Shown: in pieces, positions 6,120 to 62,529 of the stretch
Layout: every line of letters begins with the position of its first letter
Position numbering within the stretch: the first letter of the stretch is position 1
Source of the DNA: a virus
Taxonomy: Duplodnaviria > Caudoviricetes
DNA: 64,000 nucleotides
Strand: one strand, 5' to 3'
Virus record (IMG/VR): IMGVR_UViG_3300037484_000435
Coordinates: 481,323 to 545,322 of that record
The notes under the pieces: model-generated
Database searches by the model: none
What the model saw: only the letters and a program-made list of their open reading frames with translations
What the model was told of the DNA's origin: nothing
Made by a program: the position numbers and the translations under genes

Positions 6120-7049
6120 GAGTATTCACAGAACTGTTTATTGACGAACTCCGTATCTTGGTAGCTGACAGAGATTACGACATCGATATCTATACCTACG
6201 AAGCAGGAGACCCAGAAGGCTCCAACGAACACCCTTATGTATTTGCCTCTACTACTTTGAGTAAGCATAACTGGGTTTACGGTATAGGTGGCACAGCAGA
6301 AGAAGCTCTGCAGGATTTACAAGAAGTTGTAATAATGTTATATGAAGTCGCGATGGAAGACCTAGAAAACAACCTTGAACACTGCCACCAATCCTACATA
6401 GAGCAAATCAAATGGTGGGCAAACCACTGGAGACTTACAACGATTTATGTTCCTGATGAGGTGGCAGATTTAGAACCTAGTAGCCATGAACGTTGGGAAG
6501 AGTGGTACAGAAAATATGACCCAGAACATATCAAGTATATGGTAACGGGCGAATACGAACCAGAGGAAGAGAATGTTACCTACACGTCAGCAGGTGGACG
6601 AAAAACTAAGTTGTCTTGGATATAAGCCGTGGCCTAACTTTTATGGCCAACCACATGGCTGGTTCATGATTTATAACAACAAGAAACTACACTCAGACAT
6701 ACGACTCCATTACCTTGAATTACCAGAGATAGGAATGGGTCCTTATTATGTCGTTAGTTTCCCGCTCGGTAAAAACCTGTTTGGGATGAATCATCAAGGA
6801 ATCGAAACCCTTCATATTGAAACGGAAGGGGACCTAGACAAAATCATAAGCTTTGTGGACGAATACCACTCCCTCTTCGCTTACCGAGAACCTTGGCATT
6901 ATCAGGGAACTGAGTATGAACCCAAGGATGGTGGGCGCGGGTGGGCCCGAATAATGAAAAGTTGGGCGGATACTGTAGCTCAAAGTTCGTTGGAGTCAGA
7001 AGAGGAGTGGCGTGCATGGAGAAATAAACTGAGCGGAACAACACCATGA
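6116..7049 (+). other. Two hypothetical CDS (6116-6625, 6573-7049)
   Basis: Coupled ORFs, no motif recognised. Confidence 0.6.
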
Positions 7050-7222
7050 TTTCAATAAATCAATTCTACAGTTGTTGGGAAATAACTTCATGGAACGGGC
7101 GGGCAAGTTTAATTATTCACCGCCCGATTAACTGTTGGAAACGTAGTTTTTCTAACTTTAATACGCCTTGGTATCGCCGTATACCTTGGAAACTTATCAA
7201 AATAGAGAGGCACTGGTAATAA

Positions 7223-11302: not shown

Positions 11303-11971
11303 ATGGCTCTTAAAGTTGGCGTAATCGGAGGCACATTCAATCCTATTCATAACGGACATTTACGGCTGGCGGAAGTCATGCTGGAGGCAGAGAAATTTGA
11401 TAATATTATTTTTGTTCCCTCTTTTAACCCGCCCTTAAAAGACCAAGACATCGTTTCCTTTGACCAGAGAGTGAGCATGCTTCAACTTGCCATAGAGGAC
11501 AATCCCTCCTTTGTAATCTCTACAATTGAACAAGACCTCTTAGGAAAATCCTATACCTTCAACATGCTACAAAAACTAATAGAAGAGTCCCCCAGTGTAG
11601 AGTTTACTTTTATCCTCGGGGCCGAGTGTTGGAATCAGATGAAGTCTTGGTATAAACCCATTGAAACTCTCGGTCTCTGTGATTTCCTGTTTGTGTGTGA
11701 TTCTGAACGAAGGTGTGCTGGGGATATTGCTTGGTCTGAGGGCGACCCGATGGTAAGACAGGCTCTTGGGGTAGTGCATAATAACAAGAAAGAATTTGTG
11801 CATCCCTCAGGAACTCGGGTAAGGTTCGAGGTTCACCCAACCCCTAAGATACGATCGACAGAGATAAGGTGGATATGTGCAAAGGGAAAAAGTTGTAGAT
11901 ACCTTCTACCAGAGAGTGTCTACAAATATATTCTACAACACAGGCTTTATAATTTATCCCAAAAGTTTTAA
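11303..11971 (+). CDS. nadD: Nicotinate-nucleotide adenylyltransferase
   Basis: GVIGGTFNPIHNGH (HIGH-like), FILGAE, IRSTEIR (SST-like), YLLPESVYKYI. Confidence 0.92.
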   Translation: MALKVGVIGGTFNPIHNGHLRLAEVMLEAEKFDNIIFVPSFNPPLKDQDIVSFDQRVSMLQLAIEDNPSFVISTIEQDLLGKSYTFNMLQKLIEESPSVEFTFILGAECWNQMKSWYKPIETLGLCDFLFVCDSERRCAGDIAWSEGDPMVRQALGVVHNNKKEFVHPSGTRVRFEVHPTPKIRSTEIRWICAKGKSCRYLLPESVYKYILQHRLYNLSQKF

Positions 11972-34789: not shown

Positions 34790-34797
34790 AAAAATAC

Positions 34798-34897
34798 GCC
34801 GTAGTTAGGTACGCGACTATGAACAAAGGTGCTACGATGCTAGCTTATGTGAACTGGAGTGATTAGTTCCGTGGTTCGAGCCCACGGTGCGGCCCCA
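34798..34897 (+). ncRNA. Degenerate tRNA-like RNA (100 nt)
   Basis: gccgta/tgcggc acceptor-like stem, ccgtgg-ttcgagc-ccacgg T arm, 3' CCA; no canonical anticodon arm. Confidence 0.5.
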
Positions 34898-37992: not shown

Positions 37993-38814
37993 ATGAATGA
38001 AAAACGCGTAATGGATGCCTTTCACGCTATGGGCTGGGGTATCGAAATCCAAGAACGAGTTACCCGTGACCTTTGGGATGGTCGCCGTGACCGAGGCACC
38101 AGCCGAATCGACGTCAAGGGTAAAATCGGTAAACAGTGGTTTGAAGCAACCGTTGCTGAAGGCACGGAGTGGGTTATTCTCGATTCGAATCAAAAAGAAT
38201 CAGGAATACTCATCATGCTGAAAGACTACGAAGCCCGCTACGATCGTCAGAATGTTTCTAAAATGTTGGTGGGCCATGATGAGCGACAATTGTTTGTTGC
38301 GGCGGTTCCTGTTAACACCAAAAGTGTTGCAGAAGCTAAGGACCGTTTAAAACCAGCTATTGTGCAGAATGCTGAACGTCGAGCAGGTGTCCGAGCTAAG
38401 GACAAGAATAAGCATCGTAACACCGCTTGGGCACGCCAAGGGGATTTTTTCTTTGTCCCCGCCCCTAACGCCGATATCGACGAAAAACTTATTCACCGAA
38501 ACGAGCCTATTAACCAAAGAGGTGGGCGTTCCCATATTGTTCAGGAACTATACCGCGTTGGTGGTCACTCTGGATATTGGGATGGTAGCCGTTGGATTAC
38601 GATCGGGCAGTATATGCGACTTCCCGCCATGGACAGGCTTCGTTGGGAAGCTCGCACTAGAGGAGCCCGTGTTTACGCTCGTGGAAGAATAACGCATCCA
38701 CAGCACGCGACCCTAGTGTTGAAGGGCTGGCACCTAGTCTGCCCCAATACGGAAGCAGCCGCCCGAGATCGCTTTGGGCGTCCTGTGTGGAGAAATATGG
38801 CTTTCATTGATTAA
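37993..38814 (+). CDS. Hypothetical protein with RQGDFFFVP motif
   Basis: 273-aa ORF followed by a strong hairpin. Confidence 0.7.
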   Translation: MNEKRVMDAFHAMGWGIEIQERVTRDLWDGRRDRGTSRIDVKGKIGKQWFEATVAEGTEWVILDSNQKESGILIMLKDYEARYDRQNVSKMLVGHDERQLFVAAVPVNTKSVAEAKDRLKPAIVQNAERRAGVRAKDKNKHRNTAWARQGDFFFVPAPNADIDEKLIHRNEPINQRGGRSHIVQELYRVGGHSGYWDGSRWITIGQYMRLPAMDRLRWEARTRGARVYARGRITHPQHATLVLKGWHLVCPNTEAAARDRFGRPVWRNMAFID

Positions 38815-39115: not shown

Positions 39116-39237
39116 ACCGAGATAGCTCAGATTCCTAAGGCATGCCGTAAAGACCCAAAGTACACGGGTTATATAAGCAAAGAGCGTTAGGCTGATAACC
39201 TAAAGGTCTGAGAGACTGGGGAACTCTCATCTCGGTA
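39116..39237 (+). tRNA. tRNA-Ile(GAT)-like gene with large D-loop insertion and aberrant T-loop
   Basis: ACCGAGA/TCTCGGT-A; TAGCTCAG...AGAGCG D stem; ttagg-ctGATaa-cctaa; tgagag-actggggaa-ctctca. Confidence 0.7.
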
Positions 39238-57462: not shown

Positions 57463-57551
57463 GCCCTCGTAGCCTAAGGGATAGGCAATAGACTCCTAAT
57501 CTATCTGGCTAACTACGCCTTATGCAGGTTCGAGTCCTGTCGAGGGCTCCA
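57463..57551 (+). tRNA. tRNA-Arg(CCT) with long variable arm, encoded CCA
   Basis: GCCCTCG/CGAGGGC-T-CCA; ataga-ctCCTaa-tctat; variable ggc-taactac-gcc. Confidence 0.87.
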
Positions 57552-57555
57552 CGAC

Positions 57556-57646
57556 GCCCACGTCGCACAATGGATAGCGCAAGAGTCTTCTAAACTCTCG
57601 GACTGAAATATCGTCCATGTAGGTTCGAGTCCTACCGTGGGTGCCA
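57556..57646 (+). tRNA. tRNA-Arg(TCT) with long variable arm, encoded CCA
   Basis: GCCCACG/CGTGGGT-G-CCA; agagt-ctTCTaa-actct; variable ggac-tgaaatatc-gtcc. Confidence 0.87.
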
Positions 57647-62452: not shown

Positions 62453-62529
62453 GGGGGTGTAGCTCAGTTGGCTGGAGCGCGGTCCTGATAAGGCCGAGGA
62501 CGGAGGATCATGCCCTCCCACCCCTACCA
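62453..62529 (+). tRNA. tRNA-Ile(GAT) with non-canonical T-loop, encoded CCA
   Basis: GGGGGTG/CACCCCT-A-CCA; cggtc-ctGATaa-ggccg; ggagg-ATCATGC-cctcc. Confidence 0.85.

Follow-up and report, generated by a model that had tools for sequence, protein, structure and literature searches.

A tRNA-Ile-Derived RNA with an Enlarged D Loop and an Altered T Loop in the tRNA Cluster of a Large Phage

RESULTS

Genes and RNAs at the Locus

The DNA that was analyzed, denoted here as the window, is 64,000 nucleotides in length and lies at the end of an IMG/VR virus record of 545,322 bp, which is rated 100% complete by CheckV. Using ARAGORN, 41 tRNA genes were found genome-wide. They occupy the two ends of the linear record, an arrangement that suggests one permuted cluster and a record that may be read as circularly permuted. 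Ten of the 41 are found inside the window, all on the + strand and with small ORFs between them. Between the genes for tRNA-Gln (34707) and tRNA-Lys (39929), and on the same + strand as the 10 tRNAs, is the element of interest at positions 39116–39237, which we refer to as the look-alike RNA. It is present as one copy per genome and is overlapped by no table-11 ORF on either strand; promoter and terminator scans were uninformative. The genome also contains a canonical tRNA-Ile(GAU) at 62453–62529 (ARAGORN), the anticodon stem of which differs from that of the look-alike RNA.

Upstream of the look-alike RNA is gene X (37993–38814, + strand), which encodes a protein of 273 amino acids. The closest relatives of this protein in a large protein collection are P0002 (67% identity) and P0003 (62% identity), from a 658-kb contig. 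No match to gene X was found in Pfam, PHROG, the PDB sequences, Foldseek, or VIA, and the Atlas contains only “hypothetical” clusters. The AF2 model is confident (pLDDT 85), and the invariant motifs are GHD(E/D)R, RQG(D/E)(F/W)FF, and H-x2-H-x-T. Homologues of gene X (approximately 90 loci, L130–L220) are widespread in the tRNA clusters of jumbo phages, often less than 100 nt from a tRNA gene.

Two further proteins of the phage are pertinent to tRNA-like RNAs. A nucleotidyltransferase of the CCA-adding/poly(A)-polymerase type is encoded just upstream of the window (genome positions 480894–481271, − strand, in a 531-aa frame). A Ro/TROVE protein (538-aa frame) is encoded at genome positions 67310–68026 within the tRNA-rich region, and this gene would be about 92 kb from the look-alike RNA if the linear record is circularly permuted.

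Several other features of this genome were recorded. A CUA suppressor tRNA is found at genome position 47126, and two HEARO RNAs in the window adjoin IscB/TnpB genes. The T loop ATCATRC occurs in the otherwise canonical tRNA-Ile(GAU) at 62453–62529 and in a tRNA-Lys(CUU) of another contig (L210, positions 6984–7062). These loops have A54 and U58 instead of U54 and A58, a swap of the reverse-Hoogsteen pair that may be characteristic of the lineage. A long variable arm or extra length is found in tRNAs that are normally of class I, both in the window (57463–57646) and genome-wide: Arg-CCU (89 nt), Arg-UCU (91 nt), His (90 nt), Trp (87 nt), Pro (86 nt), and Gly-UCC (87 nt). Just 3′ of tRNA-Gln(UUG), a tRNA-like element that was not called (34797–34893) combines a noncanonical interior with 6 of 7 acceptor pairs (GCCGTAG/GTGCGGC) and with a T arm of canonical form (CGTGG-TTCGAGC-CCACG), after which comes CCCA. 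The sequence CTCGAG occurs once in the whole genome, against an expectation of 47, and CGGCCG, GGCGCC, and GCCGGC are also strongly depleted genome-wide, which suggests avoidance of host restriction sites.

Anatomy of the Look-Alike RNA

The first-pass annotation had described a tRNA-Ile(GAT) with an insertion in the D loop and a replaced T loop, and all of the features that it listed were found by direct reading in 39116–39237 (+). The 5′ strand of the acceptor stem (ACCGAGA, 39116–39122) forms 7 of 7 pairs with the 3′ strand (TCTCGGT, 39230–39236), which is followed by A73 at 39237. The next bases are CCG, and thus the terminal A of CCA is not encoded. U8-A9 (TA, 39123–39124) precedes the D stem, in which GCTC (39125–39128) is paired with GAGC (39182–39185); G26 is found at 39186. 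The anticodon arm, TTAGG-CTGATAA-CCTAA (39187–39203), has a 5-bp stem and a 7-nt loop with U33, the anticodon GAT for isoleucine (39194–39196), and A37. It is followed by the variable loop AGGTC (39204–39208).

The D and T loops are the altered parts of this RNA. The D loop is enlarged to 53 nt (39129–39181), relative to 7–11 nt in canonical tRNAs. The bases that follow the D stem are AGATTCCT, and the G18-G19 context is absent. Included in this leader is TTCCT (39132–39136), which is complementary to GGGAA (39219–39223) in the T loop and is the proposed D-loop strand of a helix between the two loops. The remainder of the insert contains the 8-nt palindrome GGCATGCC (39139–39146) and a hairpin, ACCC-AAAGTACAC-GGGT (39153–39169), that was identified by direct reading and by folding. 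The T arm (39209–39229) consists of a 6-bp stem, TGAGAG/CTCTCA, and the 9-nt (nominally 11-nt) loop ACTGGGGAA (39215–39223), rather than a 5-bp stem and a 7-nt TTCRANN loop, and T54-psi55-C56 is not present. Another register is possible, with an acceptor stem of 8 bp and a T stem of 5 bp; the coaxial stack is 13 bp in both registers.

It had also been noted earlier that a 10-mer that spans the T loop recurs in RNA A. The sequence GACTGGGGAA does occur exactly twice in the window (34984 and 39214), where about 0.1 further exact copies would be expected by chance. The link to RNA A is nevertheless weak because the 10-mer is kept neither in RNA B nor in the L210 homologue of RNAs A and B, and the shared sequence is probably a coincidence. 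Palindromes of 8 nt occur at a density of 3 per kb in this genome; those of the inserts do not stand out statistically, and the genome shows no avoidance of the hexamers in question.

Results with tRNA Finders and Isoleucine Ancestry

The look-alike RNA was not called by ARAGORN, even at 80% thresholds, and no Rfam family, including RF00005, was matched at E ≤ 5. The models for Y RNA and tmRNA (Rfam, ARAGORN) also gave no match, and a distant relative could escape such models. When the central 27 nt were compared with 660 tRNAs from jumbo phages, the best matches were to tRNAs of the Ile type, with 24 of 27 positions identical to a CAU tRNA that resembles Ile2 and 22 and 21 of 27 identical to tRNA-Ile(GAU). 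The flanks of the insert (TA-GCTC-AG...GAGC-G), the CTGATAA loop, and AGGTC together form the standard pattern of bacterial tRNA-Ile. Judged from these matches, the ancestry is clear, and the look-alike RNA is derived from a bacterial-type tRNA-Ile(GAU). A chance resemblance to tRNA is ruled out by the match to Ile-type tRNAs together with the compensatory changes in the homologue described below.

A Homologue in a Metagenome Contig

Searches with DNA patterns and with single neighboring proteins returned no relatives of the look-alike RNA. Relatives were sought through gene X with an alignment-based scan, which gave 80 viral loci (mostly 22–41% identity) and 11 metagenome loci. The best of the metagenome loci is L210, a 35-kb contig with a gene X that is 48% identical. 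The order tRNA-Gln, tRNA-Gln, an A/B-type RNA, gene X, and tRNA-Lys is common to the window and L210. Gene X is the only ORF shared by the two loci, and the flanking sequence is not conserved.

The homologue of the look-alike RNA is found at L210:7071–7199, about 300 nt downstream of gene X and directly after the tRNA-Lys(CUU). Its 5′ part reads ACCAGGA-TA-GCTC-AGATTTCT, and it continues through a D loop of 67 nt, in the same place as that of the window copy, to an invariant D stem. From there, the 3′ part reads GAGC-G-TCTACCAAGG-AGGTC-CGGGG-AAATGGGAAAC-CCTCG-TCCTGGT-A, in which the variable loop is identical to that of the window copy. The anticodon arm is absent. In place of the 17-nt arm of the window copy is a 10-nt linker, TCTACCAAGG, which looks like a remnant of the 3′ strand of the arm. 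This copy is not recognized by Rfam either.

With these, two members were found. A covariance model (R1) identified no further member in 46 jumbo-phage records with gene X, where its 2 matches were both not tRNA-like, and it gave no member in the T4 locus or in the locus L157 and no paralogue in the genome of the window phage. A loose pattern of CTGATAA...ACTGGGGAA gave at least 118 chance matches in viral contigs, none with paired stems. Patterns based on the D-arm leader, AAGTRCAC, and GAGCG...AGGTC gave only chance matches in coding sequence (viral contigs and GTDB genomes), and a loose structural descriptor with 1177 matches was useless. The motif AAGTRCAC was also considered as a general companion of gene X and discarded, since it is near gene X in only 4 of about 40 loci.

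Other RNAs with unusual features were encountered in the course of these searches. A 140-nt tRNA-like gene at L157:4811–4950 (− strand, IMGVR_UViG_3300018080_000098) has a D-loop insert of about 62 nt, which contains the palindrome GGTGCACC and in which CCAC...GGGTGG forms a closing stem. Its T arm is canonical, and its anticodon loop, with CTGAAAG, is oversized. A distant relationship to the L210 insert is possible as judged by eye; R1 gives no support, however, and the alignment is ambiguous, so the gene was not counted as a member. At L173 (− strand, reverse-complement positions 11316–11417), a 102-nt gene resembling tRNA-Val(GAC), with an otherwise canonical body, carries the clean hairpin CCAGGC-TTCG-GGCCTGG in its D loop, and thus D-loop inserts occur in other jumbo phages too. 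Immediately downstream of gene X homologues, L211:6822–6985 and L213:6817–6980 encode a “closed” tRNA-shaped RNA that is surrounded by an outer stem, TTTAGGG/CCCTAAA. Within this stem, the T arm is followed in turn by the 3′ acceptor strand, TCCA, a linker of 7 nt, the 5′ acceptor strand, and the D arm. The acceptor stem of the closed RNA covaries between the two loci (ATCCCCC/GGGGGAT and ATCCCCG/CGGGGAT), and the 9-mer AAAGTACAC is common to this RNA and to the loop of the insert hairpin in the look-alike RNA.

Compensatory Changes

The two members were aligned with MAFFT (alignment A3, two sequences), and 18 pairs were scored: the 7 acceptor pairs, 6 pairs of the T stem, and 5 pairs of the proposed loop–loop helix, the D-loop strand of which is formed by bases 17–21. 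In this alignment, 97% of the cells are paired, compared with 39–61% when the partners are slid by 1–3 columns. Double changes with pairing kept were found at five pairs, compared with 0–1 in the slid controls. They are distributed over the three helices, with two in the acceptor stem (G4:C to A:U and A5:U to G:C, from the window copy to L210), two in the T stem, and one in the loop–loop helix. With RNAalifold, the acceptor and T stems were recovered independently, with 4 compensatory pairs.

Both copies keep 7 of 7 acceptor pairs, 5–6 T-stem pairs, the D stem, and a hairpin in the insert. The L210 hairpin, CTTCT-AAGTGCAC-AGGAG, has a stem that is different in sequence from ACCC/GGGT and a nearly identical loop, AAGTRCAC. 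The L210 insert also contains a different perfect 8-nt palindrome, AGGTACCT, upstream of the hairpin and in a comparable place. The joint chance of a palindrome upstream of the hairpin in both inserts is roughly 0.03, and the palindromes are only suggestive because of their density in this genome.

The first-pass annotation had proposed selection rather than decay and had pointed to covariation in homologues as a means of examining this. Selection is supported by the L210 copy, in which all of the helices common to the two RNAs are kept in a diverged phage and the stems remain paired through five double compensatory changes, rather than decaying at random. These stems were kept while the neighboring protein diverged to 48% identity and the flanks and other ORFs were not conserved, which argues for structural selection and rules out simple decay. 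This comparison supports the conclusion that the look-alike RNA is a conserved, working RNA derived from tRNA-Ile and not a decayed gene.

A Proposed Helix between the D and T Loops

The elbow of canonical tRNA is locked by the G18-G19/psi55-C56 contacts, with the purines in the D loop and the pyrimidines in the T loop. In the two members of this family, the T loops are ACTGGGGAA (window copy) and AATGGGAAA (L210), which both conform to A-N-T-G-G-G-R-A-A, and the 8 nt that follow the D stem are AGATTCCT and AGATTTCT, respectively. Five of five pairs can be formed between the loops in each RNA, TTCCT/GGGAA in the window copy and TTTCT/GGAAA in L210, with one G-U pair included. The T loops differ at only two positions, and one of these (G to A) is opposite the sole substitution in the D-loop leader (C to T), so that Watson–Crick pairing is restored. 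We estimate the chance of such a matched change in leader and T loop at about 0.07, and the helix rests on this single covarying pair. These observations suggest that the elbow is rewired and not absent, with the leader TTYCT of the D loop paired with GGRAA of the T loop. The earlier designation of the RNA as “elbow-less” is probably wrong, given the complementarity of TTCCT and GGGAA and the covariation of the pairing (C:G to T:A) in L210. If the loop–loop helix is real, the canonical contacts are replaced by a helix of opposite polarity, and the remainder of the D loop projects from the corner of the molecule.

The calculated energy of the loop–loop duplex is −3.7 kcal/mol. The minimum free energy of the window copy is −35.9 kcal/mol (z = −2.2), compared with −28.7 kcal/mol for the constrained cloverleaf, and folding does not favor the cloverleaf. 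In the competing structure, CCUAA and UCAG of the D loop are paired with UUAGG and CUGA of the anticodon stem; this is possible in the window copy only and may be an accident of the origin of the insert. As judged from these models, nearest-neighbor folding neither supports nor excludes the loop–loop helix.

DISCUSSION

We consider it somewhat probable (approximately 0.58) that the look-alike RNA is a stable small RNA in a tRNA shell, which has been selected in at least two distantly related large phages and in which the domain displayed at the elbow is the working part. Decoding is not the shared function of the family because the L210 copy has lost the anticodon arm and keeps the rest. The proposal in the first-pass annotation of a tRNA mimic is therefore supported in the sense of a tRNA-derived RNA with a nondecoding shared function. 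The flawless anticodon arm in the window phage suggests, however, that the arm may still be under selection there, and a nondecoding role leaves its perfectly canonical form unaccounted for.

It is conceivable, though unlikely, that the window copy still functions as an isoleucine tRNA and serves the ribosome as a second Ile(GAU) isoacceptor after charging by the host IleRS, with an odd elbow that might confer resistance or invisibility to a host tRNA-directed nuclease or another defense. The identity elements of tRNA-Ile are known from work with Escherichia coli, and the look-alike RNA has the canonical form of bacterial tRNA-Ile in the anticodon arm, U33, A37, A38, A73, U12:A23, G26, U8-A9, and the variable loop of 5 nt. 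No stem contains a mismatch, a CCA-adding enzyme is encoded by the phage, and odd T loops are found in other tRNAs of the phage, including ATCATGC in the canonical tRNA-Ile at 62453. That same gene, however, already provides the genome with a tRNA-Ile(GAU), no phage-encoded IleRS was found in the genome, and the L210 homologue is kept without an anticodon arm. The structure itself is also unfavorable: the T loop lacks T54-psi55-C56, and a domain of about 40 nt occupies the elbow, a site of contact for both the ribosome and RNase P. The helix made by the acceptor and T stems is 13 bp long, a length that disfavors EF-Tu in tRNA-Sec. We regard as rather doubtful the related proposal of a chargeable tRNA-Ile in which the elbow lock has been swapped for a 5-bp Watson–Crick helix of reversed polarity and which carries a displayed RNA domain. 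If this were true, such a tRNA may escape or act as a decoy for host factors that read the elbow, or may bring a protein or a second copy of itself (through the palindromes) to IleRS or the ribosome.

The same canonical tRNA-Ile(GAU) would make a damaged second gene redundant, and a tRNA-Ile pseudogene that was disabled by an insertion and is now drifting would be consistent with the failure of every tRNA finder to detect the look-alike RNA, with the loss of the anticodon arm from one member, and with the absence of other relatives from our searches. We judge this to be very unlikely in view of the five compensatory double changes and the retention of the acceptor, T, and D stems and the hairpin in both copies, despite the 48% identity of gene X and the lack of conservation in the flanking sequence and neighboring ORFs. 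Least probable of all, and ranked after the displayed-domain RNA, a special decoding tRNA-Ile, and a pseudogene, is the suggestion of an intron in the D loop, the excision of which from the transcript would leave a tRNA-Ile of normal size. The removal of about 42 nt would leave a plausible length for the D loop, and unexplained inserts have been reported in the tRNA genes of megaphages (Devoto et al. 2019, PMC6784885). The insert is, however, in the D loop and not at position 37/38, it is too short (about 45 nt) for a group I core, it matches no Rfam intron family at E ≤ 5, and by eye no bulge-helix-bulge can be read at its boundaries. The T loop is also noncanonical and covaries with the D-loop leader, so that removal of the insert yields no normal tRNA. 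When the insert was deleted in silico, none of 210 deletion variants were called by ARAGORN at settings from the default to 80% thresholds, which places both the D loop and the T loop outside the tRNA model. No excision could turn the L210 member into a tRNA. The spliced or processed intron that had been offered in the first-pass annotation thus finds no support.

For the tRNA-shelled RNA with a displayed domain, the following pathway may be envisioned. The look-alike RNA would be cotranscribed with the tRNA cluster and cut by RNase P at its 5′ end (39116), guided by the stack of the acceptor and T stems. The 3′ end would be trimmed, and the encoded A73-C-C would be completed to CCA, for which the CCA-adding-type enzyme of the phage is available. 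Of the parts relevant to RNase P and to 3′ processing, the RNA has the acceptor stem and the T stem, both with covarying pairs, but its T loop is changed. The role of the tRNA shell is probably in processing and stability. We infer that UUCCU of the D loop pairs with GGGAA of the enlarged, purine-rich T loop in place of the G18-G19/psi55-C56 lock, and that the D-loop domain of about 40 nt, with its 8-nt palindrome and the hairpin with an AAGURCAC loop, projects from the elbow and may be bound by a protein or by another copy of the RNA.

One concrete idea is RNA–RNA dimerization through the GGCAUGCC palindrome and the loop of the hairpin. The hairpin loop of L210, AAGUGCAC(A), is identical to the dimerization-initiation loop of HIV-1 (Mal-type), the GUGCAC palindrome of which forms a kissing dimer. 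This idea is weaker for the window copy because its loop holds only GUAC. The partner could alternatively be a protein; gene X is the only conserved neighboring gene, and Ro/TROVE is encoded elsewhere in the phage genome. In the window phage, the isoleucine anticodon arm would probably still be used, for example through binding by IleRS or by another factor that reads the anticodon.

Few RNA tertiary motifs are as conserved as the tRNA elbow, which RNase P, the CCA-adding enzyme, T-boxes, and the ribosome all recognize. If a natural RNA derived from tRNA and kept by selection has exchanged the elbow lock for a loop–loop helix and displays a further domain there, it would illustrate the extent to which the tRNA fold can be reworked. 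The tRNA clusters of megaphages hold such genes, and these are missed by the tRNA finders.

Comparison with Known Systems

The bacterial tRNA-Ile(GAU) (RF00005) is similar to the look-alike RNA in its 7-bp acceptor stem that begins with A1:U72, in U8-A9, in the GCUC/GAGC D stem, in G26, in the 5-bp anticodon stem with a CUGAUAA loop, in the AGGUC variable loop, and in A73. The look-alike RNA differs by its 53-nt D loop, its T loop that is not of the T-psi-C type, and its 13-bp stack of acceptor and T stems. The stack of 7 + 6 (or 8 + 5) bp in the window copy is reminiscent of tRNA-Sec, but the look-alike RNA has a GAU anticodon and a 5-nt variable loop rather than UCA and a long variable arm, and the stack in L210 is of 7 + 5 bp.

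YrlA and other bacterial Y RNAs are tRNA-like noncoding RNAs that work with a protein (Ro/Rsr), and the phage encodes a TROVE/Ro protein; the presence of Ro in jumbo phages has been noted (PMC7824862). In Y RNA, the ends form a long stem that binds Ro; in the look-alike RNA, they form an acceptor stem. The tRNA genes of Lak megaphages have been described as having “enigmatic introns”, conserved extra sequence with no known mechanism of removal, which were predicted as introns by tRNAscan with eukaryote settings in genes that are otherwise normal tRNAs (Devoto et al. 2019, PMC6784885). The look-alike RNA departs from these in the position of its insert, which is the D loop, and in having an altered T loop. 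In the literature that was searched, we found no paper on D-loop insertions in tRNAs.

The closest parallel in kind, and not in family, is provided by rnaC and rnaD of phage T4, which are 119–139 nt in length and annotated as small stable RNAs in a tRNA cluster; the record gives no function. To our knowledge, their function has stayed unknown since they were first described. Like the look-alike RNA, they are small, tRNA-shelled, noncoding RNA genes within a phage tRNA cluster, and rnaC has a tRNA-type T arm and acceptor strand at its end. With the filters off, R1 gave only noise at the T4 locus (best score 13.2 bits, not on rnaC or rnaD). No D stem or anticodon arm can be read in the sequences of rnaC and rnaD, whereas the look-alike RNA keeps the full cloverleaf and is modified only at the elbow. 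The look-alike RNA is thus of one kind with the phage tRNA-like stable RNAs, which would ride on tRNA processing, and it would add a defined, testable member to this poorly understood class of phage tRNA look-alikes.
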